IMG/VR virus record: IMGVR_UViG_3300025141_000022
Location: 96,001-160,000 of that record
Reading direction: 5' to 3' (one strand)
DNA length: 64,000 bases
Origin: a virus
This document shows positions 13,103 through 63,848 of this stretch, in pieces; within the stretch, counting starts at the first letter, position 1; the number at the start of each line of letters is the position of its first letter. The notes beneath the pieces are model-generated. The model was not told where the DNA came from, searched no databases, and saw only the letters and a program-made list of their open reading frames with translations. The position numbers and the translations under genes were made by a program.

Positions 13103-13206
13103 CGAAGTGGATGCTTCAACCAGTTAGACACTGTTGCAAAGGCAAGATAATCACGCGGGTAGCGCCCGCACATTTTTTTAATAAACGGAGATACAGTAAT
13201 GAGTAG
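13081..13206 (+). CDS. 41-aa basic peptide with CC motif (not in the ORF track)
   Basis: GGAGG RBS 13068-13072, ATG 13081, MKRQTWTAKWMLQPVRHCCKGKIITRVAPAHFFNKRRYSNE, TAG 13204-13206. Confidence 0.45.
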   Translation: MKRQTWTAKWMLQPVRHCCKGKIITRVAPAHFFNKRRYSNE

Positions 13207-13747
13207 ATGGGGAAAACCAACCAAAAATAACAAGAGAAGAGATCCAAGATACTTCTTGAACGAACAAGAGGAAAAGGAAGCACAGCGCGATCCATCAGGT
13301 GGCGCCCCAGCTGCCCAATTGGATGAAAAAGAAGTTCTACCACTAATCCAAAGCTTCTATAAGGCTATGCGCGCAGCCCGCGATGGGGTGCAATCTTCCC
13401 GTAAAGCTTTAGGCGATGACTGGGTTAAAAAACAAGCCCAAAAATATTCCCAAAGAGCCGGCGATCAAGAACAAAATCTTAAGATGTGGTTTCAAACCAC
13501 GGTGGGCGACGGCATGTGGCGCGCCGCTCGTGCCATGGCTCCTGTTTATGCTGACATTAGAAAAGGCGCCCGAGGATCTGCTAACTCGATAGATATCATC
13601 GCACACCATGCTGGCGACATGGCAGAGAAATTTTTGCAACAAACAAAGGGCATGAAAGCCAAAATGGCATTTCTAGAACAATTTGACGAGTTAACCAAAG
13701 AGTATTTTGAAAACACTGAGAGATTTGGAAAGGGACACATACTGTGA
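13199..13747 (+). CDS. Putative internal head protein with DPRYFLxE leader
   Basis: MSRWGKPTKNNKRRDPRYFLNE; CGGAG RBS; lies directly upstream of the prohead protease. Confidence 0.7.
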   Translation: MSRWGKPTKNNKRRDPRYFLNEQEEKEAQRDPSGGAPAAQLDEKEVLPLIQSFYKAMRAARDGVQSSRKALGDDWVKKQAQKYSQRAGDQEQNLKMWFQTTVGDGMWRAARAMAPVYADIRKGARGSANSIDIIAHHAGDMAEKFLQQTKGMKAKMAFLEQFDELTKEYFENTERFGKGHIL

Positions 13748-14352
13748 AAGTACTTTTACGAGAATACTATGAATTATGTGAAGGCGGTGTTTGCCAAGAT
13801 CTTTTAACTGAAGATGAAAAGAGATATGTGGCAAACGGCGGCTTAATTTTGACTGGAAAACTACAAGAAGCAGATGTGCAAAACGGGAACGGCCGTGTGT
13901 ATCCGCAAAGAGTATTACAGAGAGAAATGCAAAATTACCAAAAACTTGTAAAAGAAAGAAGAGCCCTTGGAGAGTTAGATCATCCTGAAGATTCAGTTAT
14001 TAACCTTAAGAACGCATCTCATATGGTTACAGAGGTGTGGTGGGATGGTTCTGCGGTTATGGGTAAAGTTAAAGTTTTAAATACGCCATCTGGCAAAATA
14101 TTACAAGAATTAGTGAGTGATGGTGTTAAGCTGGGAATTTCGTCCCGTGGCTTGGGATCTGTTAGCGAATCACAAGGGAGAACAATTGTCGAAGACGATT
14201 TCACATTAATCTGTTTTGACTTCGTATCAGAACCATCAACGCCAAATGCATTTATGCTTAAAGAAAATAAGAATGCGCCAAATATTTTTACCAAAGCAGA
14301 CAAAATCAATCGCGCATTAAACGACATATTGGGAGATTATGACAATGAGTAA
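13744..14352 (+). CDS. gp21: Prohead core protease (T4 gp21-like)
   Basis: QEADVQNGNGRVYP, ALGELDHP, LGISSRGLGS, FDFVSEPSTPNA. Confidence 0.95.
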   Translation: MKVLLREYYELCEGGVCQDLLTEDEKRYVANGGLILTGKLQEADVQNGNGRVYPQRVLQREMQNYQKLVKERRALGELDHPEDSVINLKNASHMVTEVWWDGSAVMGKVKVLNTPSGKILQELVSDGVKLGISSRGLGSVSESQGRTIVEDDFTLICFDFVSEPSTPNAFMLKENKNAPNIFTKADKINRALNDILGDYDNE

Positions 14353-15361
14353 AAAGAACTTTTCTTCATATGATGATATTCATAGGCTACATGAAGGATT
14401 TAGAAAATGGATAGGTGAGGAACGTGGACCCCCCTCCCCGCTTGGATCCGAAGAAGATGATTCGGGGATTGCTGCCGATGTTGAGCAGGCATATAAATCC
14501 GGCCCAGCATCCGTCCGCGCTTTCATGAACACACCAGAAGGTTCAGATCCGAAAGTTAGACAATTCTTGCATCGAGCACAAGCTGAATATGACGGTTCGG
14601 CATCGGACGACGATATTTCAATCTCGCAGGATGGTGCTAAATCTTTGATGGATATGGTTCCGACTCAAAAATATATTGACCTTATGCAGTCGGTATCCTT
14701 TCCTTTGGGAAGTGTCGGCACTCTTAAAAAGGCAATCGAATCTAAGAAGGGTTTTGGCCCAATTTCGGTTTCGGACCAGTACGTCCTAGATGGACACCAT
14801 CGTTGGTCGGGCCAGTTTGCAATTACGCCAGACGGAACGATCTCGGCTACTAACATCTCGCTCCCTGGAGATGCCCAGCAAAAATTAGCTTCGCTGCAGC
14901 TAGCAATTGCAGCTATTGATCCAAATGCGAAAGATCCGCACCCATCTAAAGGCGGCAGCGCTGCAACGAATATATTAGGAAAAGGCGCCAAAGAGATTTA
15001 CAAAAAGATTTTGGCCAACGTTAACAACCAGACTGATAAAAAGGCCCCCGGCCCACTCCTGAATGATGCCATGATTTCTGAAATTGCACAGTCTCAGGAT
15101 CCAGTTATTTTACAATGGGCGGGCTTGAAGCCTGGACAGGCGACTGAGCCCCAGCAGATCAGAGACGCAATTGCTCAAAGGGTAGCTAATAATCTAGCAC
15201 AGCTTCCCAATTTTGCTGCCGGTGCCCCTGATCGCCCCGACATGCCTCAGCTAGATCATGATTCGATTGGTGGTGCAAAAGGATACCAAAAGATTAAAAG
15301 CCGCCTCGCAACAGGCGATCTAAATGTTGTACCTCCGTTTGATAAAGGAAAGACAGGATAG
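14345..15361 (+). CDS. ParB/Srx-like domain protein, possibly virion-internal
   Basis: YVLDGHHRW motif preceded by MVPTQKYIDL; N-terminal FRKWIGEE resembles the W/F-K-x-F/W-I-x-E leaders. Confidence 0.6.
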   Translation: MSKKNFSSYDDIHRLHEGFRKWIGEERGPPSPLGSEEDDSGIAADVEQAYKSGPASVRAFMNTPEGSDPKVRQFLHRAQAEYDGSASDDDISISQDGAKSLMDMVPTQKYIDLMQSVSFPLGSVGTLKKAIESKKGFGPISVSDQYVLDGHHRWSGQFAITPDGTISATNISLPGDAQQKLASLQLAIAAIDPNAKDPHPSKGGSAATNILGKGAKEIYKKILANVNNQTDKKAPGPLLNDAMISEIAQSQDPVILQWAGLKPGQATEPQQIRDAIAQRVANNLAQLPNFAAGAPDRPDMPQLDHDSIGGAKGYQKIKSRLATGDLNVVPPFDKGKTG

Positions 15362-46836: not shown

Positions 46837-46863
46837 TTACATATGATAAAAGGAGAGAATATC

Positions 46864-47253
46864 ATGAATAGACTTATCTGTATTGTTGGATTGGCAGTGG
46901 GACTCATCGGCTCAACAGGATGCGCGACAGCGCATGCCCATCCGGTGGTAACCGCACATGTTGGTGTTACAACAACCCATGGAACAGCGCACGTTGGTAC
47001 TCACAACCACCAAGCTAGACCTCAGCGGCCTGGACCCAATTATGTGTGGCGTTCCGGTACCGGCTGGGTATACCGTGCGCCTACTCGCACCCACAGGCCC
47101 AACAACGCCCAGAACTGTAGACGACAAACTTGGGTGCCGGGACATTATGTTGGCCGAGGCCACCATCGTCGGTGGGTACATGGGCGATATATCTCTGTGT
47201 GTGCCACCCGCTATAATAATACTAGCGATCCGTGGCGATGTCATAGGCGGTAA
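46864..47253 (+). CDS. Putative lipoprotein with YXWGXW-like repeats (ATG 46864)
   Basis: AGGAG RBS; signal LICIVGLAVGLIGSTG/C; PGPNYVWRSGTGW and TWVPGHYVGRGHHRRWVHGRY. Confidence 0.6.
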   Translation: MNRLICIVGLAVGLIGSTGCATAHAHPVVTAHVGVTTTHGTAHVGTHNHQARPQRPGPNYVWRSGTGWVYRAPTRTHRPNNAQNCRRQTWVPGHYVGRGHHRRWVHGRYISVCATRYNNTSDPWRCHRR

Positions 47254-47266
47254 TATAAAATAATTC

Positions 47267-47295
47267 TTGACTTAGAGCCTCCCATGTGTTATTAT
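47267..47295 (+). promoter_or_regulatory. sigma70-type promoter with extended -10
   Basis: TTGACT 47267-47272, 17-bp spacer, TGn-TATTAT 47290-47295. Confidence 0.72.
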
Positions 47296-47317: not shown

Positions 47318-47740
47318 GTGTCTGAAAGAGAAATAGAGCCGAGTGTTTTGTATACTGGCCGCAACAAAAGATATATTGAATATGCTAGACGGATTGCAGA
47401 GAAATCCCAGTCCCCTGATTATCGCCATGGCGCTTTGCTGGTAAAAGGCGGCCAAGTGATTAACAGTTCCTACAACAAGAATTCGTATAAGGGGTGGGCG
47501 ACACGATTCAGAGATCGATTTAGTGGCCACGCTACCCATCACGCAGAGTTGGGATGTATTCTTGGCGTAGATAGAGCAAACATAAAAGGCTCTACAATTT
47601 ATGTAGCTAGGATAGGCAAGAAAGGCGATTTGAGGATGTCTAAACCTTGCCCCATGTGTACTGAAATTCTAAAGAACATGGGCGTGAGAAAAGTAGTCTA
47701 TTCTATCTCAGAGGGGCAAATTGATTGTGAAAAATTATGA
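47318..47740 (+). CDS. Zn-dependent cytidine/dCMP deaminase-superfamily protein
   Basis: HHAELGCI and SKPCPMC zinc ligands; RHGALLVKGG N-terminal strand. Confidence 0.85.
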   Translation: MSEREIEPSVLYTGRNKRYIEYARRIAEKSQSPDYRHGALLVKGGQVINSSYNKNSYKGWATRFRDRFSGHATHHAELGCILGVDRANIKGSTIYVARIGKKGDLRMSKPCPMCTEILKNMGVRKVVYSISEGQIDCEKL

Positions 47741-47976
47741 AAGTTGGTGACTTAGTTAAATGGAGTATTGACCCGTCTTATTGGGGCATTATTTTAGAGA
47801 AATCTCTTGCTATGGATGTTTATGAATCTCATCAATTACACTCCATGGAAATGTCGCCGCACGAACAGGTATATAAGATATGGTGGTACCCATTTGCTAA
47901 GAATATTGGCGTATTTACAACTACAGATTTAATACTATTCTCGGAGGGAGAAAATGAAAAGACTTTTGATTATTGA
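47737..47976 (+). CDS. Small hypothetical protein (KVGDLV, SH3/KOW-like start)
   Basis: MKVGDLVKW...GIILE; coupled start and stop overlaps. Confidence 0.55.
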   Translation: MKVGDLVKWSIDPSYWGIILEKSLAMDVYESHQLHSMEMSPHEQVYKIWWYPFAKNIGVFTTTDLILFSEGENEKTFDY

Positions 47977-48922
47977 TGCTTTGAACATGTATTTCAGAGC
48001 GTATATTGTAGATCCAAGTTTGTCTACAAATGGCCAACCAATTGGCGGCATTAAAGGGTTTACTAAGATTCTACAAAAACAGATTCGTGAAAGCAAGCCT
48101 GACGAAGTGATTATATGTTGGGATGGCCAAGGCGGCTCTCAAAGGAGGAAGGCTCAAAACAAGGGCTATAAAGAAGGCCGAAAGCCAATTCGCCTTAATC
48201 GCGAAATTAGAAACCTTTCTGAGAATGAAGAAGTCGCAAACAAAGTTTGGCAGCAGACAAGGCTCATTGAATATTTGAACAACTTGTCCATTATTCAGTT
48301 GATGTTACCGGGGGTAGAGGCCGATGACATCATTAGCTATGTCTGCCAGATGCCGCATTATGCAGATTGGCAAAAAGTGATTGTGTCTTCAGATAAAGAC
48401 TTTATCCAACTTTGTGACGACACTACTGTTCTCTATCGGCCAATCCAGAAGCAGGTTCTGAACTCCACTCGGATTGTTGAAGATTATGGAATACATCCAG
48501 TTAATTTTGCCATGGCCCGCGCCATTGCTGGAGATAAGTCTGACAACCTCCCTGGAGTCGGTGGTGTTGGCTTGCCAACTATCGCTAAGAGGCTTCCATT
48601 TCTAAAAGAAAATAAAACTTACACAATTGATGACATTACTAATTACTGTAAGGAAGTCGAAAGCAATCTTAAGGTATACAGCACCATTCTTGAAAAAAGA
48701 GATTTGATTCATGACAATTACAAAATTATGCAACTGTACGCACCCTCTATCAGTCCACAGGGCAAAAACAAGGTAAAGTATGATGTTGAAAATTTTGTTT
48801 TTGAATTGAATCAGACAGAAATCAAGAAGATGATGATAGAAGATGGTTTCGGCGCTCTAGATCTAACTGATTTGTTTACAGCCATGAAAAGAATTGTGGC
48901 TGAGAGCAAAAAAACAAACTAA
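47954..48922 (+). CDS. 5'-3' exonuclease / flap endonuclease (T4 RNase H-like)
   Basis: LLIIDALN, CWDGQGGS, GVEADDII, SSDKDFIQL, GDKSDNLPGVGGVG (H3TH motif). Confidence 0.93.
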   Translation: MKRLLIIDALNMYFRAYIVDPSLSTNGQPIGGIKGFTKILQKQIRESKPDEVIICWDGQGGSQRRKAQNKGYKEGRKPIRLNREIRNLSENEEVANKVWQQTRLIEYLNNLSIIQLMLPGVEADDIISYVCQMPHYADWQKVIVSSDKDFIQLCDDTTVLYRPIQKQVLNSTRIVEDYGIHPVNFAMARAIAGDKSDNLPGVGGVGLPTIAKRLPFLKENKTYTIDDITNYCKEVESNLKVYSTILEKRDLIHDNYKIMQLYAPSISPQGKNKVKYDVENFVFELNQTEIKKMMIEDGFGALDLTDLFTAMKRIVAESKKTN

Positions 48923-48925
48923 TTA
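48918..48925 (+). promoter_or_regulatory. Putative late promoter inside the replication region
   Basis: ACTAATTA overlapping the exonuclease stop, 5 bp before ATG 48931. Confidence 0.5.
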
Positions 48926-48930
48926 TTATC

Positions 48931-49761
48931 ATGATGGACGCTTTTCTAGATAAATGGAAATCATATAAAACTGCCGACTTCGAACTGAAAGAACTTGTAG
49001 ACCCTGAATCGGTAGCTACCTCGTCCTTTGAGGTACAGGATAGTCTACATTCCGCTTTTTGGTCAACTGAGGGCAAACTGGACCCAAAAGTTCGAAAACG
49101 ACTAATCAGAATAGCTAAGAACTTTATTAAGGACTTGGAACTTTCCGAACTTGAGATAGAAGACCTGACATTTACAGGATCACTAGCGAACTACAACTGG
49201 TCTAAATATTCAGATATAGACTTGCACATAATTGTTGATTTTTCAGCCCTTGAGGGTGACCAAGAGTTACTCAATAATTACTTTAATGCTAAGAGAGCGT
49301 ATTGGAACATGAAGCACGCGATTATGATGCATGACTTCGAAGTGGAAATATACGTTCAAGATTCCAACGAACCACATACGGCATCCGGCTTATACTCCGT
49401 ATACTTTGATGAATGGATCAATACGCCGCAAAAACAAGACCCCGTTATCGATCACACAAATATAAAGGTTAAAGCAGCTGCCTTGATGGATCAGATAGAC
49501 ACAGCACAAGAAATGTTCAATGACGGCGCGTACAAAAAGGTTATTGAGTATGTTGAAAAATTGCGAGAAAAAATTAAGAAATTTAGAACCTCTGGTTTAA
49601 ATAATGGTGGCGAATACTCTATAGAAAATTTAGCATTTAAAGCTTTACGAAGAAATGGGTATTTAGGTAAACTATCGGATTTGAGAATTGCGTCATATGA
49701 TGAATTGATGTCTCTACATCCCGAAATGATAACCATATTAGTTGGGGAGGATGCAGGATGA
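48931..49761 (+). CDS. Pol-beta-superfamily nucleotidyltransferase
   Basis: FTGSLANYNWSKYSDIDLHI (GS...DxD) and EVEIYVQD third acidic site. Confidence 0.85.
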   Translation: MMDAFLDKWKSYKTADFELKELVDPESVATSSFEVQDSLHSAFWSTEGKLDPKVRKRLIRIAKNFIKDLELSELEIEDLTFTGSLANYNWSKYSDIDLHIIVDFSALEGDQELLNNYFNAKRAYWNMKHAIMMHDFEVEIYVQDSNEPHTASGLYSVYFDEWINTPQKQDPVIDHTNIKVKAAALMDQIDTAQEMFNDGAYKKVIEYVEKLREKIKKFRTSGLNNGGEYSIENLAFKALRRNGYLGKLSDLRIASYDELMSLHPEMITILVGEDAG

Positions 49762-50369
49762 ATAAAAAGTGGAAAAACTTCATTAATGAAAAAGTTTGGG
49801 CCGATTACGAAGAGCCCAAAGGTCAATGGAAAGACGTACCATTATCAGATCTTGAACACGATCCCGATGAATATGATTTAACTGACGAAATGTATAACCT
49901 AATTGCCACAGCATATGCTAAAATCGGCGGTCATGTAAATATTAAAGGCCCAGCAGATGTTCCAGATAAATATGATCAGTGGTCAGCGGTCGATTTGGAT
50001 GGTGATCCTGAACCTGACGCTTTGCGAGTGGCATCAACCAAGCCGGCCGGAACAAAACTTACGGTTTCGGGCCACGATGGTACTCGTATAGCAAAAAATG
50101 CCTACACTGACAAAACTGCAGACATGCTTAAGAAGGATGGATATTTCGCGGAGATGTCTGACGCCATCGCGCACATTATGATTACCAGATACAATATCGA
50201 GTCGGTCAACGATAAAGAAACAGTCGAGAAAGTTTTAGGCAAATCGGTCGATTGGGTCGGCCCTCACCCAGAGGGTAAATACCCAGAGCACACCGGGTGG
50301 TATGTTCGTAAGTTGAGCGGCAAGGTTAGTCACATGAAGATTATGCTTGGAAAGCCAAAGGTAGGATAA
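49758..50369 (+). CDS. Putative internal head protein with KWKNFINE leader
   Basis: N-terminus MNKKWKNFINE; GGAGG RBS. Confidence 0.65.
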   Translation: MNKKWKNFINEKVWADYEEPKGQWKDVPLSDLEHDPDEYDLTDEMYNLIATAYAKIGGHVNIKGPADVPDKYDQWSAVDLDGDPEPDALRVASTKPAGTKLTVSGHDGTRIAKNAYTDKTADMLKKDGYFAEMSDAIAHIMITRYNIESVNDKETVEKVLGKSVDWVGPHPEGKYPEHTGWYVRKLSGKVSHMKIMLGKPKVG

Positions 50370-50371
50370 AT

Positions 50372-52894
50372 ATGAATATTAACAAATGGCGTAATTTCCT
50401 GAATGAAAAGAAGGAGCGCCTCCTAAGAGAAATTACAGAAGACGAGATGGAACATATTCGTGACGCTCTCGACAATATGGACAGCGGCGAAGACTTAGCT
50501 TTTTCAGAGTTGTTTGGCGACAGGACAAGAATTGTTCTCGACTTTAAAACAGCAGATAGCGAAAGCGAGTTGGGAAGATTTATTAACCTTTTTGACGTGC
50601 TTGGATACGAAGTCGATTGGCAGAAAGGACTAATATCAGCGACAAAAACATTGCAAAACACAAGCCCAGGAGGTATGTCCGACCGCATGCTCGCCATGAC
50701 ACATGGTGGTACTGGTGGCAAGGAGGATAGACAACGAAAGATCCAGATGAAGATCGGAAAGTTCTTCGCAAAGATTTATGATTTAGCCACAAAACAAAAG
50801 AAACTAGTTGATCAGGTTTTCAATTCTAAAGAAGCAGCGAGCCTCAAGGCTCAATATTCAACCACCGTAACAGGCGAAATGGACTGGTGGAAAAATAAAC
50901 AAGCAAGGCACCTGACAGGCAACCACATCGAGGCTGGCTTAGGAGAAGAGTTGGCAGCTAGGCACTATCAGCTATACGATCAGTTGAATATGTACGTTGG
51001 CATTGACTATGGAAATGCTTTTGTAAGAGATCCATCCAGAGCAAAGAATTATATGGAGTACTGGCAAAAGAATGCCGGATACATCAAGAAGAATATAGAC
51101 AAAGCCACAAGTAATGAATACTCTATTGTTGTCACTAGGCACCCTGTTGATATTTTGCGCATGAGCGACTTTAACGCCATCCAATCTTGTCATTCGCCAC
51201 CATCTAGAGGAGGTGGAGCACACTATGAGTATTACAAATGTGCAGTAGCCGAAGCTCATGGCCATGGCGCTGTGGCTTATGTGCTCAACACAGAAGACTT
51301 GTTGCACGCTACAAATACTAGTAATATAGACAGCGCAGAACAGGAGATCCAAGATGGTGAACTTTTTGCAGATGATGTCAGAGGTAGCCACGTTGGAGCC
51401 AGCATGGATCTAACACCAATATCTCGTTTGCGGCTAAGACAAGTTAGACATTACGCATCAGATGATGTTCTTAACTCTCAAATGGGTATGGGCACGCAGA
51501 TAGCCGTGCCTGAAATGCGTATCTATGGTGAGAAGATTCCTGGTTTCAGGCAACGCATCATGAAATGGGCGAGAGAGAACCAAGAGCAGGCACTCGCCAA
51601 CGCCCCTAAAAGAGATGGCAGAATTGATCTGGGCCGATTCATTAAGTTTGGTGGCTCACAAGAGGACAACCAAATTGCTACTCTTCTCGGAGATTTGTAT
51701 GGACACGGAAGGCTTCCGCCGGCGGCACAGAAACAGGTATTTATTGGCAATATTATTAAAGATACTCGCACCGAAGACAATTTGGATGTTAATCTTGTTG
51801 GCGGCATCTTAGAACAGTATGAACAAGCCTGCGCAGAGATAACAGATGAGTGGAACAATAGAATGCAGGCTTGCGAGGTTGAAGCTAGAGTCGAAGACGA
51901 TGGTGGCGGCAGCGTTTACATTGCCCTATATGCTTCCATGATTATCAAGTGGGACGAAGACGATTTTATCGGACTGCCAAATTATATGGACTCGCAATAT
52001 GCAGTTGGCGAACTAAATGATATAGGATACAGTTGGTTTGAAGACAAGGGTATCAGATCCCAAGTTTCTTATAAACGTTCCCAAGGTGAGGACTTCCACA
52101 AGACATACATTATGCAGAAAATGGACATCGAAGCTGAAATGATACCTGAAATGGCGCAGCAAGCCTATGCTTATGACCCCGATGGGTTTGAGGATTTCTG
52201 TGTCGAGGTTAACAAAATTGATGACATGTACGATGGCATTAAAGAATACCTTGAGCGCTATTATAAGCGCGAGGGCTATATGGCTGGCGGTCAATTCATG
52301 AAGCTGGCATTGAATATTGAACATGGTGACCTTGATCCAGATTTCTGGGAAGTTGAGCTTGACGATCCATATGATCCAGAAGAAGCATATGAAGCCATGG
52401 CAAAAGTAAACTTGGAATTGGATCCCGGCTTGTATGTGATGGCATCTGGGTTTCCAATGACACCCGAAGATATGGTAAATGTATTGAACTCCCGAGAGTT
52501 CAGAACCAAGTTCCGCACAGAAGTACTAAAAGAGCCTATGAAATATGTGGGCACAGAAATGTTCTTATCCCTTCACGATGACACCAAAGCTAGTGTAGGC
52601 CGTCAGGTCAGCGCCGATGGATCTGGACGGACCAGCAAGATGTCTAATGCTGTTGACTTCGACTTTGTTATTAAGGTTACACAAGACGATCCCGAGATAT
52701 TAACTAAGGTTTTTGCACGGACTGTTGAGTATATGGACGATGAAGGCGAATTTTATGATCTCGCCAACCAAACTATAAAGGGTATAATGAGAGATCAGGT
52801 TCGTGATCGATACGCGGATCCCAAAGAGGAACCCCAAGGACTTTCCGAGTCTCATAAAGTAATGAACAGTTGGAGAAAGTTTTTAAATGGCTAA
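50372..52894 (+). CDS. 840-aa hypothetical protein with leader motif at both ends
   Basis: N-terminal MNINKWRNFLNE; C-terminal LSESHKVMNSWRKFLNG. Confidence 0.7.
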   Translation: MNINKWRNFLNEKKERLLREITEDEMEHIRDALDNMDSGEDLAFSELFGDRTRIVLDFKTADSESELGRFINLFDVLGYEVDWQKGLISATKTLQNTSPGGMSDRMLAMTHGGTGGKEDRQRKIQMKIGKFFAKIYDLATKQKKLVDQVFNSKEAASLKAQYSTTVTGEMDWWKNKQARHLTGNHIEAGLGEELAARHYQLYDQLNMYVGIDYGNAFVRDPSRAKNYMEYWQKNAGYIKKNIDKATSNEYSIVVTRHPVDILRMSDFNAIQSCHSPPSRGGGAHYEYYKCAVAEAHGHGAVAYVLNTEDLLHATNTSNIDSAEQEIQDGELFADDVRGSHVGASMDLTPISRLRLRQVRHYASDDVLNSQMGMGTQIAVPEMRIYGEKIPGFRQRIMKWARENQEQALANAPKRDGRIDLGRFIKFGGSQEDNQIATLLGDLYGHGRLPPAAQKQVFIGNIIKDTRTEDNLDVNLVGGILEQYEQACAEITDEWNNRMQACEVEARVEDDGGGSVYIALYASMIIKWDEDDFIGLPNYMDSQYAVGELNDIGYSWFEDKGIRSQVSYKRSQGEDFHKTYIMQKMDIEAEMIPEMAQQAYAYDPDGFEDFCVEVNKIDDMYDGIKEYLERYYKREGYMAGGQFMKLALNIEHGDLDPDFWEVELDDPYDPEEAYEAMAKVNLELDPGLYVMASGFPMTPEDMVNVLNSREFRTKFRTEVLKEPMKYVGTEMFLSLHDDTKASVGRQVSADGSGRTSKMSNAVDFDFVIKVTQDDPEILTKVFARTVEYMDDEGEFYDLANQTIKGIMRDQVRDRYADPKEEPQGLSESHKVMNSWRKFLNG

Positions 52895-53081
52895 GTTGAT
52901 ATTGCCGTTGCTCATCTTGTCTGCATGTCATAAGAAAGCAGCAACGGAGCCCGAAACATATATAATAAGAGATGACGTATTAGAATCTTTAAACGAAGAT
53001 GCATTTGATTCTTTGCCAGAGGCAGAACAGGACGATACAGCATCACCGGAAGAACAAGACTTATTAGACGAGGAATCTTAA
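52887..53081 (+). CDS. Small lipoprotein
   Basis: MAKLILPLLILSA/C lipobox, acidic mature part. Confidence 0.7.
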   Translation: MAKLILPLLILSACHKKAATEPETYIIRDDVLESLNEDAFDSLPEAEQDDTASPEEQDLLDEES

Positions 53082-53529: not shown

Positions 53530-53933
53530 GTAATATAGTAGTAATTATGCAAACAGACACAGATCAAATAGGCAAAGCAGTGATTATAAAATGGCCACAT
53601 GTGCTGATTTTAAAAAGATCTATGCAATTAGAAAAGTTCCCAGGTGAATGGGACTTAGCTGGTGGCCACACTATCGAGGGAGAGGATCCACTCGACGGTG
53701 TTTTGAGAGAGGTATGGGAAGAGACAGGGTTTGTGTTATCTAATCCCGAAAAACTTTACAGTGATGGTAGAGAAGCATATTATAAAGTAATTGTTAACAG
53801 CGAGCAAGAAGTTCGATTAAGCAATGAGCACGAAGAGTATGTTTACGCCACACCAGACGAGATAGAATCTTATGAATTGCCTGATAAATATTTAAAGGCA
53901 ATTAGATATGCGCTAAAAGACATTTTAGCTTGA
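53526..53933 (+). CDS. NUDIX hydrolase
   Basis: WDLAGG...GEDPLDGVLREVWEETG Nudix box; LSNEHEEY. Confidence 0.9.
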   Translation: MSNIVVIMQTDTDQIGKAVIIKWPHVLILKRSMQLEKFPGEWDLAGGHTIEGEDPLDGVLREVWEETGFVLSNPEKLYSDGREAYYKVIVNSEQEVRLSNEHEEYVYATPDEIESYELPDKYLKAIRYALKDILA

Positions 53934-53958
53934 CAAAGCGATATAAACCGCTTATAAT
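53930..53958 (+). promoter_or_regulatory. Perfect-consensus sigma70 promoter of the helicase-nrdJ operon
   Basis: TTGACA 53930-53935, 17-bp spacer, TATAAT 53953-53958. Confidence 0.85.
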
Positions 53959-55348: not shown

Positions 55349-57780
55349 AGGTGTATACACAACAAGAGGTTATGGCCTCTACGTTAGAGTATTTTGATGA
55401 TGATGATTTAGCAGCAAACGTTTGGGTAACCAAATACGCTCTTAAGGATAAGGCTGGCAACCTGTTGGAAAAAACGCCGGATGCCATGCATCGCCGTTTG
55501 GCTAGCGAGTTTGCTCGTGTTGAGACACATTATGCTGGCGACAGAGCTTTAAGTGAGAGCGAGATCTACGAGTTGCTAAAAGATTTTAAATACATTGTGC
55601 CGCAAGGTTCCCCGATGATGGGAATCGGCAATGATCATGTAAACGTGTCATTGTCTAATTGCGTGGTGGTCGCTAGCCCAGACGACAACATTTCTTCTAT
55701 CCTTGATTCTGGAAAAAGTTTAGCAAACCTTTTTAAACGCCGTTGCGGCGTGGGCATTGACGTATCTACACTACGCCCTGAAGGGGCGCCTGTTAATAAT
55801 TCTGCCGGCACAACTTCTGGTGCTTGGAGTTTCGCAGATTTTTATTCTTATGTATGTAGAATGATTGGCCAAAATGGTCGCAGAGGGGCATTAATGATTA
55901 CAATGGATGTGCGCCATCCTGACATTGAGAACTTCGTTACAATGAAGCAAGATTTGACCAAGGTAACGGGAGCAAATGTATCGGTTAAGATAAGCGATGA
56001 TTTTATGCGAGCAGTCGAGAATAAGGAAACATTCACCCTGCATTTCCCCATAGGCTCAGAGAACCCTAGCCACACAAAGAAGATTAACGCAGAAGAGTTG
56101 TGGAGTAAGATTGTAGAATCTGCCACAAAGACGGCGGAACCGGGCCTTCTCATGTGGGACAACATCACAAAGAATTTGCCCGCAGAAAGTTATGCCGCAT
56201 TTGGCTTCAAGACGTTAACCACCAACCCGTGCGGAGAGATCCCGCTGTCTGCATACGATAGCTGTCGCCTGACTTCCATCAACCTTAAGAACTTTGTTAT
56301 TAAACCTTTTTCTAAATCGGCCTATTTTGATTTTGACAAATTTAGTGATGTAGCCGCAAAGGCAATGAGATTGTCTGACGACTTGGTTGAACTGGAAATA
56401 GAAAAGCTACAGAAGATTGTTTCTGCATGTGATACTGAAGACGAAATGGTACTTTGGGGCAAATTGATGGACGCATGTATCGGTGGCCGCAGAACCGGCT
56501 TAGGAACTCATGGGTTGGCCGACGCGATTGCATGCCTCAGCATGGCCTATGACTCCACTGCTGCGCTAGAGGTAATTGACAAGATATATGGTGCCTTGAA
56601 GCTTGCAGCATACACAGAAAGCTCCAGACTCGCTGAAGAGCGCGGCGCATTTCCAATATTTGATTGGGAGATGGAAAAGGATAACTCCTTTATCAAATCG
56701 CTACCAGAAGAATTACAGTTGATGATGGCTCATGTCGGCCGAAGAAATATCTCTATTTTGACAAACGCCCCAACAGGCTCAGTATCAATTATGTCGCAGA
56801 CCAGTTCTGGTTTGGAGCCTGTATTTAGGAACTCTTATACACGCCGTCGAAAGCTGAGTCACAATGACACAGAAGTCAAGGCAGATTTTGTTGATGAGCT
56901 TGGAGACAAATGGCTTGAATATGCAGTATTTCATCATAATGTCCAGCGCTGGAGAGATATGCATGGTGAGGAAAAAGAACTGCCAGACTTCTTTGTTGAA
57001 AGTGATCAAATTGATTGGGTTCGCCGCATAGACATTCAGGCAGCAATCCAAAGGCATATTGATCACTCAATTAGCTCTACTATTAATTTACCCAAAGATA
57101 CAAATCCAGACACGGTAGGAGAGTTGTATTTTAAAGGTTGGGCAGCCGGCCTAAAGGGAATTACGGTTTATGTTGATGGTTCACGCTCTGGTGTTCTAGT
57201 AACAAACGAAGAATCCGAAGAGTCAGCAGAGCCATTTCCACACCATAAAGCACCAAAGCGTCCCACCGAGCTTTCATGTAAGATCCATCACGCGACGATT
57301 CAAGGAGAAAAGTGGACTATCCTAGTTGGCCTACTAGAAGGAAAGCCTTATGAGGTTATGGGAGGTCTTGCTACCTATGTTGAAATTCCAACAAAATACA
57401 CTGAGGGTATTCTAGTAAAGCACCCCAGAAAGTCAATGAATTCAAAGTATGATTTGCGCTTTGGTGAAAATGAAGACGAATTTGTCGTAAAGGACATTGT
57501 TAAAGTTTTTGACAATCCAAACCATTCTGCATTTACCAGAATGATTTCTTTGGGCCTCCGCCATGGAGCCAATGTACAATATGTTGTAGAGCAGATGCAG
57601 AAGGACCGTGACAGCGATATGTTTTCGTTTGTGAAGTGTGTAGCCCGTGTGCTCAAAAACTATATTGAAGACGGGGCAGAAGCCTCAGATAAAACTTGCC
57701 CTTCATGCAGTGCAGAAGGATTGGTTTACATGGATGGATGCGTTTTATGTAAAGAATGCGGATATTCAAAATGTGGTTGA
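55345..57780 (+). CDS. nrdJ: Class II (B12-dependent) ribonucleotide reductase with C-terminal extension and zinc ribbon
   Basis: SLSNCVV, GRRGALM, TTNPCGEIPL (radical Cys), CRL, APTGSVS, LKGITVYVDGSR; C-terminal CPSC...C.LCKECGYSKC; no NrdB or NrdG adjacent. Confidence 0.92.
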   Translation: MKVYTQQEVMASTLEYFDDDDLAANVWVTKYALKDKAGNLLEKTPDAMHRRLASEFARVETHYAGDRALSESEIYELLKDFKYIVPQGSPMMGIGNDHVNVSLSNCVVVASPDDNISSILDSGKSLANLFKRRCGVGIDVSTLRPEGAPVNNSAGTTSGAWSFADFYSYVCRMIGQNGRRGALMITMDVRHPDIENFVTMKQDLTKVTGANVSVKISDDFMRAVENKETFTLHFPIGSENPSHTKKINAEELWSKIVESATKTAEPGLLMWDNITKNLPAESYAAFGFKTLTTNPCGEIPLSAYDSCRLTSINLKNFVIKPFSKSAYFDFDKFSDVAAKAMRLSDDLVELEIEKLQKIVSACDTEDEMVLWGKLMDACIGGRRTGLGTHGLADAIACLSMAYDSTAALEVIDKIYGALKLAAYTESSRLAEERGAFPIFDWEMEKDNSFIKSLPEELQLMMAHVGRRNISILTNAPTGSVSIMSQTSSGLEPVFRNSYTRRRKLSHNDTEVKADFVDELGDKWLEYAVFHHNVQRWRDMHGEEKELPDFFVESDQIDWVRRIDIQAAIQRHIDHSISSTINLPKDTNPDTVGELYFKGWAAGLKGITVYVDGSRSGVLVTNEESEESAEPFPHHKAPKRPTELSCKIHHATIQGEKWTILVGLLEGKPYEVMGGLATYVEIPTKYTEGILVKHPRKSMNSKYDLRFGENEDEFVVKDIVKVFDNPNHSAFTRMISLGLRHGANVQYVVEQMQKDRDSDMFSFVKCVARVLKNYIEDGAEASDKTCPSCSAEGLVYMDGCVLCKECGYSKCG

Positions 57781-57804
57781 CATCCAACCAGAATGTGATA
57801 TAAT
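57777..57804 (+). promoter_or_regulatory. sigma70-type promoter with extended -10
   Basis: TTGACA 57777-57782, 16-bp spacer, TGa-TATAAT 57799-57804; strong AAGGAGG RBS follows. Confidence 0.75.
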
Positions 57805-60415: not shown

Positions 60416-63400
60416 ATTTGTTGGATTACACGCACATAGTGTTGCTGGATCTATTTTTGATGCAATAGGGTTCCCACAGGAACATATGGATTTTGCATAT
60501 CAAAATGGCTGTGATGCACTAGCCCTGACTGACCATGGTAACATGAATGGGCTTCCGTATCAGGTACTGCATGCTAAAAGAATGCAGGCAGAGGGTAAAA
60601 ACTTTAAACCAATTTTTGGCGTCGAAGCGTATTTTATACCGGATCTGGCCCAATGGCGTGAAGAATATGATCAAGCCATGGCCGACAAGAAACGCGCACG
60701 TTCTCTAAAAAAATCATCTCAATCTGGTGCGACCATTGAAGATGAAAACGCTAGCAAGACGGCTATTAAAGACATCATCCGACGCAGAGCACACTTGGTA
60801 CTGGTGGCTCAAAACCAGACTGGCCTAAATAACCTGTTTAAATTGATTTCGGAATCTTACCAGCCAGAGAATTATTATCGTTATCCTCGAATGGATTATG
60901 CCATGCTTAAGAAATATGGCGAAGGAATTATCGCATCTTCAGCGTGCCTAGGCGGTGTGTATGCCCAAGATTATTGGCAAAGCTGGGAACAGAATGAGGA
61001 TGGCGAGCGCCACTTTAACGAACAAGAGTGTATGCGGCGAATGCGGATTACTACAGAGAAGATGGTAGATATTTTTGGAGATAGGTGGTATGGAGAATTG
61101 CAGTGGAACAACATTGACGATCAGCATCGTTTAAACCAATATATTATTAAGGTTGCCGAAGAGTATGGCGTAGAGCTTGTTACAACTGCTGACAGTCATT
61201 ATCCAAATCCCACCGCGTGGAAAGACCGCGAACTTTATAAGCGTCTAGGTTGGCTAGGTAAGAGTAAACCAGATTACGAAACAAATGAGTTGCCGCCTGG
61301 GGTCGAAGAGATCGGGTATGAACTATATCCTAAAAACGGAGATCAGATTTGGGAGTCTTACAAGAAGTATTCGTCTGATTGTAATTTCGAATATGATGAC
61401 GGTCTTGTTATGCGCTCGATCACCAACACACACATGATTGCGCACGAAAGAATTGATAACTTTATTCCTGACAATACTGTTCGTTTGCCCGATTTTGTGG
61501 TGCCTGAAGACATGACTGCTGATGCCGCTCTTATTAAACTAAGCCTGGAGGGGCTAAAGAATTTAAATCTCCTCCAAGAAGAGGTTTATCGTGATCGTCT
61601 AAAGCGAGAGCTTGACGTTATTGCTGACAGAGGGTTCAGCAAATACTTCCTTACGATGAAAGCCATTTCAGATCGAGCAGCAGACAACATGCTCACTGGC
61701 CCCGGCCGAGGCAGCGCAGCGGGATCGTTAGTAGCCTATGTTTTGGGAATTACTCAGGTAGATCCTATTAAATATGGTTTGCTGTTCTCGCGTTTCTTGC
61801 GCTCAGACGCAACAGACTATCCCGATATTGATTACGATGTGGCTGACCCGATGGTGCTCAAAGAGCGCTTGATCGAGGAGTGGGGAGAAGATACTGTTGC
61901 ACCGATTTCTAACTGGAACACACTCAAGCTCAGAAGCTTAATCAAAGACATTTCCAAGTTTTATGGAATCGAGTTTACGCAAGTTAATTCTGTGACTAGT
62001 AAGATGATCCATGAGGCCATTGGCCCTGCCAAGAAGCGACATGGGATCAAGGCCGGGGTATACAGTCCCACGTTTGAAGAGGTGATGGAATTCAGTACAA
62101 CGCTGCAAGCCTTTTTGAATCAGTATCCATTTGTAAAGACTCACGTCGAAGCTCTGGTTGGCCAAGTTCGTTCATGCTCTCGGCATGCCGGCGGGATCGT
62201 TGTAGCGGAAAACCTAGATCAGTATATGCCGCTGATTAACTCTGGTGGCGTTCGTCAAACACCGTGGTCAGAAGGCCAGAACGTCAGACATCTTGAGCCA
62301 ATGGGGTTTATTAAGTTCGATATTTTAGGACTCTCCACATTGAGAATGATTGACGGAGCGGTTCAACATATTTTACGAAGACATCATGGAATTGAGGACT
62401 GCACATTTGAGCACATTAAGGATTACTATAATCAAAATCTGCATCCTGATGTATTAGACATGAGTGATCAGTCTGTGTACGAGAATATTTTTCATGCCGG
62501 CACATGGGCTGGCATCTTTCAGTTTACTGAAAATGGAGCGCAGCAGTTTTGCACCCGTGCAAAGCCAACAAGCATTATTGATATTGCTGCTATCACATCT
62601 ATTTTTCGACCGGGCCCCCTTAGCGCCAATGTCGATAAGGACTATGTAGAGGCCAAGAGGAGTCCACAATATATTAAATATATTCATCCAATTGTTCAGG
62701 AGATCACCGAAGAAACGTATGGGTTCTTAATCTTTCAGGAGCAAATTGCACTACTCGCTCATAAGCTTGGTAAGGATTTGAGCCTTGATGAAGGTAACGC
62801 GCTTCGTAAACTACTTACTAAGAAGGGTACAGGAAAAGGCAATGATAAGAAAACGATTATTTATAAAAAGTTTATGCAAGGTTGTCAAGATAAGGGCGTC
62901 ACAAAGTCGAACAGTCAAAGATTGTGGGATACTTTTGAGTACTTTTCTGGCTATGGCTTTAATAAGTCACACGCAGTGTCGTACTCAATCCTGTCGTACC
63001 AATGCGCATGGTTGATGAATTATTATCCTGCTGAGTGGATGGCAGCCTTTCTCGACAAAGAGCCAGAGTCTAGAAAGGAAAAGGCCATTAACATAGCTAA
63101 GCGCTTTGGTTTCGATATCGCCCCTCTCAACGTCAACACTTCTGGTGTAGTTTGGGAAATCGATCAGGATCAGAAAACACTAATTCAGCCACTAACTTCG
63201 ATAAAGGGTTTGGGCATCGCGGCAATTGAGCAGATTATTAACAATCGTCCGTTCCAGAGTGTTGAAAGTTTCATCTTTAACGAAGAGATAGTTTACAGCA
63301 AACTAAACAAGAAGGCGCTGGATGTGTTGATTAGAAGCGGCGCAACAGACTGCCTCATTGATGGTAGGTTTACTGGCGCGAGGCACTTCTGGTCTGCTGT

Positions 63401-63848
63401 CGCCGTGGACCGCCCTAGGAAGGAGAAGAATCTAGTCGAAAATATTGAACTCTACTCCCCCGAAGGCGATTTCACAGAGGCTGAAAAAATTCAGTACCTC
63501 GTTGATTTGACTGGAGTGTTCCCCTTGAATAAGGTTATCACACTTGAGGTACAAGAAAGGCTAGAACAGATGTGTGTTCCTCCGTTGGCGGAATATGATC
63601 CAGATTTACATATCGCGTGGTTTGTTCCAAGAAATATTATTCCGCGAAAAACAAAAAACGGTAAAGACTACTGGATTGTAGAGGTTATTGATTCGACAAG
63701 TAAATTGACAAAAATCCGATGTTGGGGAATCCGACCGGGCCGGGACAACTTGCATATAAATAGGCCATATATGGCCAAGCTTGATTACAATCCAGAGTGG
63801 GGATTTTCAACAAGATCACTGAGGCACAATTTTAAACTTCTAGGATAA
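60393..63848 (+). CDS. dnaE: DNA polymerase III alpha subunit (family C)
   Basis: PHP domain LHAHS...ALTDHGNM, GPGRGSAAGSLVAY, YPDIDYD, RHAGG, KFDILGL, FNKSHA, C-terminal HhH/OB region. Confidence 0.96.
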   Translation: MDTISKIKFVGLHAHSVAGSIFDAIGFPQEHMDFAYQNGCDALALTDHGNMNGLPYQVLHAKRMQAEGKNFKPIFGVEAYFIPDLAQWREEYDQAMADKKRARSLKKSSQSGATIEDENASKTAIKDIIRRRAHLVLVAQNQTGLNNLFKLISESYQPENYYRYPRMDYAMLKKYGEGIIASSACLGGVYAQDYWQSWEQNEDGERHFNEQECMRRMRITTEKMVDIFGDRWYGELQWNNIDDQHRLNQYIIKVAEEYGVELVTTADSHYPNPTAWKDRELYKRLGWLGKSKPDYETNELPPGVEEIGYELYPKNGDQIWESYKKYSSDCNFEYDDGLVMRSITNTHMIAHERIDNFIPDNTVRLPDFVVPEDMTADAALIKLSLEGLKNLNLLQEEVYRDRLKRELDVIADRGFSKYFLTMKAISDRAADNMLTGPGRGSAAGSLVAYVLGITQVDPIKYGLLFSRFLRSDATDYPDIDYDVADPMVLKERLIEEWGEDTVAPISNWNTLKLRSLIKDISKFYGIEFTQVNSVTSKMIHEAIGPAKKRHGIKAGVYSPTFEEVMEFSTTLQAFLNQYPFVKTHVEALVGQVRSCSRHAGGIVVAENLDQYMPLINSGGVRQTPWSEGQNVRHLEPMGFIKFDILGLSTLRMIDGAVQHILRRHHGIEDCTFEHIKDYYNQNLHPDVLDMSDQSVYENIFHAGTWAGIFQFTENGAQQFCTRAKPTSIIDIAAITSIFRPGPLSANVDKDYVEAKRSPQYIKYIHPIVQEITEETYGFLIFQEQIALLAHKLGKDLSLDEGNALRKLLTKKGTGKGNDKKTIIYKKFMQGCQDKGVTKSNSQRLWDTFEYFSGYGFNKSHAVSYSILSYQCAWLMNYYPAEWMAAFLDKEPESRKEKAINIAKRFGFDIAPLNVNTSGVVWEIDQDQKTLIQPLTSIKGLGIAAIEQIINNRPFQSVESFIFNEEIVYSKLNKKALDVLIRSGATDCLIDGRFTGARHFWSAVAVDRPRKEKNLVENIELYSPEGDFTEAEKIQYLVDLTGVFPLNKVITLEVQERLEQMCVPPLAEYDPDLHIAWFVPRNIIPRKTKNGKDYWIVEVIDSTSKLTKIRCWGIRPGRDNLHINRPYMAKLDYNPEWGFSTRSLRHNFKLLG

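Follow-up and report, generated by a model that had tools for sequence, protein, structure and literature searches.

We analysed a 64,000-nucleotide stretch of DNA (the window; bases 96001-160000 of the IMG/VR virus record IMGVR_UViG_3300025141_000022) from an uncultured marine T4-like phage whose record, 184,913 bp long, is rated 100% complete. The subject is an island of three tightly coupled genes that lies between the genes for flap endonuclease (FEN) and DnaB helicase, on the + strand with nearly all other genes. The first gene (48931..49761) encodes a nucleotidyltransferase of the Pol-beta fold with 276 amino acids (aa), hereafter NTase (phrog_36119, 3e-45); the second (49758..50369), which overlaps it by the 4 nucleotides (nt) ATGA, encodes p203, a protein of 203 aa; and the third (50372..52894), after a gap of 2 nt, encodes p840, of 840 aa. 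Before them, at 48918..48925 (+), stands ACTAATTA, one copy of the motif ACTAWTTA and a candidate late promoter: its TAA doubles as the stop codon of the FEN gene, and it ends 5 nt before the NTase ATG at 48931. The original prediction, made from the letters of the window, had placed this motif ahead of three tightly coupled genes, and the coordinates, the 5-nt gap, and the overlap and gap of the open reading frames (ORFs) all agree with it.

All three island proteins carry a terminal peptide of the form W-[KR]-x-[FY]-[LI]-x-E, which we call the tag, the NTase having a variant of it. The p203 leader comprises residues 1-11 and ends in I-N-E, with the conserved body of the protein directly after the Glu; that of p840 comprises residues 1-12 and ends in L-N-E; and that of the NTase takes up residues 1-21, with W-K-S-Y, a spacer, and L-K-E. 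These leaders had been quoted from the outset, and a genome-wide scan bears them out. The tag is the N-terminal leader of eight unrelated proteins (p203, p840, the products of five consecutive genes that lie shortly before the window, and a 5'(3')-deoxyribonucleotidase-family protein of 282 aa), and the NTase and a 1089-aa protein have a variant leader, in which a spacer of 4-5 residues separates the Trp/aromatic core from L-[KR]-E. A looser pattern, aromatic-x-x-aromatic-aliphatic-x-Glu within the first 30 residues, is found in 10 proteins of the 185-kb genome, against 0.94 +/- 0.97 in shuffled sequence (200 shuffles, maximum 5). The DNA of relatives around p840 (~1 Mb) holds 166 N-terminally tagged ORFs in at least 22 similarity groups, 31 of these ORFs being NUDIX, compared with 0 in a shuffle. 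Codon usage varies between the copies of the tag, which argues for selection on the peptide and not for a repeated piece of DNA. Taken together, these comparisons indicate that the leaders are a real, portable, and selected tag.

The tag is found at the other end of the chain as well. The last 14 residues of p840 (52850-52891) form a second copy, preceded by L-S-E at residues 824-826. Relatives of p840 are numerous (841 clusters at 50% identity; 431 IMG/VR loci): Most of them end in the tag, and a subset, like the window copy, also begin with it. Among the best 120 relatives of the NTase, the tag is N-terminal in 48, C-terminal in 27, and at both ends in none; the remaining 45 are mostly N-terminal variants outside the search pattern. 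The canonical tag is carried by most metagenomic relatives of the NTase, the window copy being the spacer variant before L-K-E. By these counts, the tag is position-independent and stands at the N-terminus, the C-terminus, or both.

The placement of one residue follows the end at which the tag stands. In 92% of N-terminal tags (n = 144), a Glu lies at +6 after the core start; C-terminal tags (n = 81) have the end of the chain 1-3 residues past the core, and 57 out of 82 have a Glu on the other side, 4-7 residues upstream of the Trp. At either end, therefore, the conserved Glu is found between tag and cargo, an arrangement that a cleavable address tag predicts and a plain binding motif does not. 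In the AlphaFold2 models of p840 and the NTase, the tags lie in terminal helices, and the low-confidence linkers that join them to the body hold the proposed cut sites.

Some relatives of p840 (P0155, P0175, P0186, P0198, P0203, and P0250) and of the NTase (P0264 and P0357) have an alternative C-terminal module of ~60 residues in place of the Trp tag. It is basic, contains a G-G-N-K stretch, and has K-R-S-K-S-A-P-P-G-x-G-G at the extreme C-terminus. A further portable tail, for sorting or for DNA binding, is a possible interpretation.

Tagged genes are grouped elsewhere in the genome too. The five consecutive tagged genes (L005:4739-8549; genome 90738-94548) lie within the structural module, and the first of them shows weak similarity to kinases (Pfam Pkinase, E 6e-6, below the cut-off) and has ACTATTTA 8 nt before its ATG. 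A second island of like design lies outside the window (L006:972-4241 and L006:4238-5086, the latter at genome 175237-176085): Here ACTAATTA stands 24 nt before the 1089-aa variant-leader gene, which is followed by the tagged gene of the 5'(3')-deoxyribonucleotidase family (phrog_2643, E 2e-21). In a Tara relative (L002), an N-terminally tagged protein of the SAM-lyase family (Pfam PF23780, E 5.8e-9; L002:7384-8004) is encoded between FEN and the p203 homologue, where the window has its NTase gene. A full-text literature search returned nothing relevant on the tag peptide, on a capsid targeting sequence in marine metagenomes, or on DUF6932.

The leaders had been likened to the capsid-targeting sequence (CTS) of T4, and two findings uphold the resemblance. 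The T4 CTS is MKTYQEFIAE (PMC8442874), in which positions 4 and 7 serve targeting and positions 8 and 10 serve processing (PMC9026906); the four conserved positions of the tag (i, i+3, i+4, and i+6) have exactly the spacing of these four. The phage also encodes a prohead core protease of the T4 gp21 family (13744..14352, +; Pfam Peptidase_S77, E 1.7e-33, 112.5 bits). Its terminase, portal, and major head protein are likewise of the T4 type, and the genes for the last two adjoin that for the protease. Like the CTS of IPII and IPIII, which is removed by gp21, the tag is a short N-terminal peptide on unrelated proteins, with the same aromatic/aromatic/aliphatic/Glu spacing, and the cargo sets vary between relatives. 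The marine tag differs in having Trp and a basic residue and a longer hydrophobic lead-in, and in standing also at the C-terminus, the Glu then being on the upstream side. Its predicted cargo consists of large acidic enzymes, whereas the T4 internal proteins are small and basic; and this putative signal has a far wider distribution, on metagenomic proteins that number in the hundreds to thousands. The ORFs flanking the protease gene (window 13199-13747 and 14339-15361) have tag-like aromatic-aliphatic-x-Glu sites 20-27 residues from their N-termini and no family match; they are candidate prohead core or scaffold proteins.

The second T4 protein that invites comparison is Alt, an injected ADP-ribosyltransferase that is processed by gp21 and loses propeptides at both ends (PMC9026906). 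Like Alt, p840 is predicted to be a large head enzyme with removable end peptides, but both of its end peptides repeat a single motif, and it resembles neither ADP-ribosyltransferases nor any solved fold. Beyond T4, the ejection or inner-body proteins of phiKZ and SPN3US and the Dar proteins of P1 provide a parallel, in that many large unrelated proteins are loaded into the head via terminal propeptides; in phiKZ and SPN3US a gp21-like protease cuts after Glu, and some proteins of the phiKZ, SPN3US, and P1 Dar type counter host defence. In contrast to the marine tag, these systems have different cleavage logos and no shared tag sequence, and they belong to another phage lineage.

The window has 11 copies of the motif ACTAWTTA, every one of them on the + strand, compared with an expectation of 4.9 +/- 1.95 on both strands (0 out of 100 shuffles reach 11). 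Genome-wide, 31 copies are on the + strand and two on the - strand, and 19 of the 31 fall in the intergenic ~7% of the genome. The motif precedes genes of the head region, tail sheath, tube, and baseplate region, as well as the first of the five upstream tagged genes, the NTase gene, and the tagged 1089-aa gene. Strong sigma-70-like sites are almost all outside the structural module and stand before gp32, dCMP deaminase, and DnaB. Since two promoter classes thus divide the genome, a late role is the best reading of ACTAWTTA, and the island probably has its own internal late promoter inside an early operon. L007 and L090 have 5 nt between motif and ATG; the distance is 7 nt at the p840 gene of L011 and L019, and 8 nt at the leading gene of the five tagged ones upstream. 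Four diverged relatives keep the motif 5-7 nt from the first tagged ATG after FEN. The short gap that had been remarked upon in the window is therefore kept in relatives, and its conservation speaks for a late transcript that is leaderless or nearly so. The NTase ATG lacks a preceding Shine-Dalgarno sequence.

In form, ACTAWTTA resembles the T4 late promoter (TATAAATA; gp55-dependent and with no -35 element): Both are a single AT-rich 8-bp block, strand-specific and directly upstream of structural genes, and ACTAWTTA likewise often overlaps the stop codon of the preceding gene. However, its sequence differs, it is sometimes just 5-8 nt from the ATG, and no gp55 homologue was identified. The T4 consensus itself occurs eight times on the + strand and 12 times on the - strand, mostly within genes, and is not the motif of this phage. 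The core motif is also strongly strand-biased in relatives (403 vs. 44). We considered whether ACTAATTA specifically marks tagged genes and rejected the idea: In relatives, untagged ORFs are preceded by it just as often, so it appears to be a general promoter and not a cargo mark.

The identification of the first island protein as a Pol-beta NTase, already proposed from its sequence, is supported by motif and fold. The Pol-beta motif h-G-[GS] ... D-h-[DE] and a third carboxylate are present, the catalytic residues being G83-S84, D95, and D97, plus E137 and E139; in the family alignment G83, S84, D97, and E139 are invariant and D95 and E137 nearly so. The NTase core is followed by a C-terminal helical bundle with a conserved basic motif. 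Against Pfam NTP_transf_2 the protein scores 20.8 bits (cut-off 21). Searched with Foldseek, its AlphaFold2 model (predicted local distance difference test [pLDDT] 89.1) matches only NTases, with AAD(9), CD-NTases, TENT5, and ANT at the top (E 6e-4 to 1e-2, TM 0.2-0.27); the best match is AAD(9) (6sxj; E 5.7e-4, TM 0.24, 13% identity). VIA-align pairs the model with the minimal NTases 2rff (Z 7.1, rmsd 4.0, 102 residues aligned) and 1ylq (Z 6.8), and a wide VIA-align run returned mostly generic helical bundles. This evidence identifies, at the level of sequence and predicted structure, a genuine Pol-beta-fold enzyme that is itself tagged.

The layout of the NTase is that of the two-domain Pol-beta NTases (ANT/AAD, CD-NTases, and TENT5) and of MNT-type enzymes, with G-S ... 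D-x-D, a third acidic residue, and a core followed by a helical bundle. It differs from them in its low TM-scores (0.2-0.27), in matching no defence or resistance profile, and in the basic motif of its own in the helical domain. Membership in the CD-NTase, MenT, or AbiEii families, which had been suggested for checking, finds no backing from profiles: No PADLOC CD-NTase family matches at E up to 1, and there is no PADLOC or Pfam AbiEii match. In Foldseek, CdnE and CdnD match at E 1e-3 to 5e-2 and TM 0.2-0.25. More generally, the protein has no defence-family, NCBIfam, or Pfam gathering-level match. Its similarity to the DrrA/SidM AMPylases is weak (PDB 3nku, E 0.013; SidM_N, E 5.5e-5 in one homologue, below the cut-off), and one cyanophage homologue has been labelled an aminoglycoside nucleotidyltransferase by its depositors. 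The family, phrog_36119, is phage-specific and comprises 3329 clusters at 90% identity. Untagged homologues occur in cultured Maribacter phages, and a homologue is also found in a T4-like cyanophage replication module, which suggests that the enzyme is older than the tag.

For p203 we found 106 metagenomic homologues. Most start with the same tag; the distant ones start with quite different leaders, some of them very T4-like. Among the p203 relatives there are at least four unrelated leader types, all of which end at one aligned, nearly invariant Glu that is followed by the body. The protein has no match in Pfam, PHROG, PADLOC, or NCBIfam, no PDB profile match, and no usable match in the ESM Atlas; among phages, its only matches are in three huge metagenomic ones. 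In relative L090, one ORF between FEN and DnaB consists of a p203 domain (58% identity) and an NTase domain (52%) behind a single tag. This fusion suggests that the NTase and p203 act together, and we consider that they probably do.

The body of p840 is multidomain. In its model (pLDDT 88.5), the terminal helices (residues 3-11 and 825-839) stand beside the low-confidence linkers. No counterpart of the fold was found by Foldseek against the PDB at E <= 0.001 or by a PDB sequence profile search; the best match of a wide VIA-align run (Z 5.4) is not meaningful, and the BFVD matches are uncharacterised viral proteins only. The ESM Atlas likewise gave only unnamed viral clusters, with a weak lead to PcfJ (at 0.88). 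Neither p840 nor the island has a match in the 50,697 phage records (blastn and tblastn), and the homologue clusters looked up for names hold only hypothetical metagenomic proteins. A hint that p840 also exists in larger, fused forms comes from a 2009-aa metagenomic protein (P0242), whose residues 1027-1250 correspond to the p840 core. The motif heading P0242, G-G-V-x-G-H-L-x-H, also starts an 887-aa protein of the phage (L087:9542-12205; genome 19041-21704).

The island lies, as first described, inside the replication region. Upstream of it are gp32, RecA/UvsX, dCMP deaminase, and FEN (the flap endonuclease / RNase H gene; 47954..48922, +; Pfam 5_3_exonuc_N, E 6e-30); downstream are thioesterase, NUDIX, DnaB helicase, and ribonucleotide reductase. 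Before the dCMP deaminase gene stands a sigma-70-like promoter (47267..47295, +; TTGACT, 17 nt with TG, TATTAT), which is likely the early start of the operon holding the island. A perfect sigma-70 consensus promoter before the DnaB helicase gene (53930..53958, +; TTGACA, 17 nt, TATAAT) marks, in our annotation, the start of the next early-type unit. No terminator-like site was found on the + strand between the sigma-70-like promoters at 47267 and 53930. The description of the island as a unit holds for the coupling of its three genes but not for its borders: It is not closed, and is coupled onward to four more genes inside the sigma-70-type operon. A 64-aa ORF with a lipoprotein-like N-terminus (52887..53081, +) overlaps the end of p840 by 8 nt, so that the coupled string runs beyond 52894, and is itself followed by the thioesterase gene and then the NUDIX gene. 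Because the island is in a sigma-70-type operon without a terminator, early read-through is likely too. The late promoter of the original prediction is thus upheld in that its motif behaves as the promoter class of structural genes, but it is probably not the sole source of transcripts, since read-through from 47267 is likely as well.

Several further features of the window and record may be mentioned here. A perfect sigma-70 consensus (TTGACA, 16-17 nt, TATAAT) is also present at window 57777-57804, before the gene after ribonucleotide reductase; together with that at 53930-53958, it suggests a host RNA polymerase with a canonical consensus. A 136-aa ORF between RecA/UvsX and dCMP deaminase (window 46843-47253) has a lipoprotein-like signal, a His/Arg/Gly-rich body, and no family match. 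Many small ORFs at both record ends (genome 1-1200 and 180000-184700) begin M-K-V-G-D-L-V, and the window has an ORF with this start immediately ahead of FEN (47737-47976). The start of a 1120-aa ORF (window 60486-63848) is, we assume, like the PHP domain of bacterial DnaE-type polymerase and unlike the T4 family-B polymerase.

The reading we favour, with more confidence than doubt but with a good measure of the latter, is that the three genes encode head cargo that would be docked by the tag, cut by the gp21-type protease, and injected with the DNA. While the head is being assembled, a short amphipathic helix built around W-[KR]-x-[FY]-[LI] would attach each protein to the prohead core; the protease would then cut at the Glu between tag and cargo; and the mature enzyme, freed inside the capsid, would leave with the DNA at the next infection. 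The ACTAWTTA promoter would supply the island late, when proheads are built, in an operon that is otherwise sigma-70-driven. We infer each of these steps, from docking and cleavage to packaging and injection, as well as the late timing and any enzymatic role. The pre-packaged, injected effector set that had been proposed is consistent with the tag layout, the gp21-family protease, and the promoter class; the acidic cargo and a motif that is not specific to tagged genes fit it less well.

These last two points belong to a body of observations that weigh against head cargo. The predicted mature proteins are acidic (pI 4.5-5.4 in nine out of 10 tagged proteins, 7.2 in the other), whereas the T4 internal proteins are basic. 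The mature proteins span 18-122 kDa, and the two above 90 kDa (93 and 122 kDa) would have to unfold to pass through the tail. The residue three before the C-terminal Glu is often Thr, whereas T4 favours Leu or Ile. Among the ORFs of relatives, the promoter motif precedes 26 out of 181 tagged and 165 out of 977 untagged ones and is thus no commoner before tagged ORFs, and searches for a gp55-like late sigma factor gave no hit to Sigma70_r2 anywhere in the genome and none to a PHROG among five candidate ORFs. The three-gene order is kept in the closest relative only, the genes being scattered within the same neighbourhood elsewhere, and the p203-NTase fusion is known from a single contig. Finally, with neighbours devoted to replication and nucleotide metabolism, a sigma-70-type promoter, and no terminator between, early expression in the cytoplasm is likely also to occur.

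An early cytoplasmic role would suit a different explanation, in which the tag is a docking motif for a cytoplasmic hub (the sliding clamp, gp32, or a nucleotide-metabolism complex of the replisome) and the enzymes act in replication, unpackaged. Besides the location in the replication region behind a sigma-70-like promoter, the payloads include nucleotide-handling enzymes (the NTase, NUDIX in 31 relatives, and the 5'(3')-deoxyribonucleotidase), the cargo is acidic, and the tag functions at either end; its i, i+3, i+4 hydrophobic spacing and its N- or C-terminal placement recall PIP-box-type clamp motifs. We regard this explanation as quite unlikely. The residues of a binding motif should not change with the end at which it stands, but the Glu is needed on the cargo side only; and in p203 relatives unrelated leader types interchange at the same Glu. 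Payloads of at least 22 unrelated groups exceed what a single replisome hub would be expected to recruit, and the five tagged genes within the structural module have non-replicative payloads, one of them kinase-like. The tag also does not match the bacterial beta-clamp motif.

Variation between relatives bears on another unlikely possibility, namely, that the tagged proteins enter the prohead as core or scaffold components during assembly, or as head-internal enzymes, and are degraded or retained there, not injected. The gene set is highly variable between relatives, as is typical of host-interaction cargo, and the payloads are enzymes without an evident assembly role (the NTase, the kinase-like protein, the nucleotidase, and in a relative the SAM-lyase-family protein). 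On the other side, p840 is nearly universal in the clade (431 loci), as would be expected of an assembly factor; acidic proteins suit scaffolds better than they suit DNA-bound internal proteins; the proteins encoded beside the protease have similar aromatic-aliphatic-x-Glu sites near their N-termini; and T4 core proteins are targeted and cut likewise (PMC9026906). A role of the shared sequence in expression, as a 5' coding requirement of leaderless mRNA, or as a recombination junction of cassettes, with ACTAATTA at 48918 being just the end of FEN, seems very improbable. It would account for the overlap of the motif with the FEN stop codon, for the missing Shine-Dalgarno sequence before the NTase ATG, and for the several tagged genes that begin 5-8 nt after the motif. 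But initiation cannot be influenced by the copies of the peptide that stand at C-termini; p203 and p840 carry the tag though internal and translationally coupled; the codons differ between copies; and the motif is strand-specific and stands before many genes with normal Shine-Dalgarno spacing.

Returning to head cargo, a more far-reaching version can be proposed only tentatively, and we think it somewhat less likely to be right than wrong. Here the tag would be a position-independent address peptide of ocean T4-like phages with an orientation-dependent protease site, loading a large and swappable arsenal of acidic enzymes that would be injected and act before phage gene expression, for example, against the nucleotide-based immunity of the host. 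On the same tentative footing, the arsenal of the island would comprise a two-part nucleotide-transferring enzyme (the NTase with p203) and the 93-kDa p840 with its new fold.

New at this locus are the C-terminal and double-ended tags, the rule for the orientation of the Glu, the tagged NTase family, the p203-NTase fusion, and the conserved promoter geometry. C-terminal and double-ended tags with the Glu on the cargo side would extend the T4 rule of an N-terminal targeting sequence, and the cargo-side rule is a testable prediction on how the prohead core recognizes its cargo. The tag is also a compact candidate for protein packaging in engineered phages. If it is a head-loading signal, it would allow the proteins delivered at infection by abundant ocean phages to be recognized from sequence, a task that otherwise needs virion proteomics of unculturable phages. 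The tag also nominates three large uncharacterised families, those of the NTase (phrog_36119), p203, and p840, as candidate early-acting effectors.

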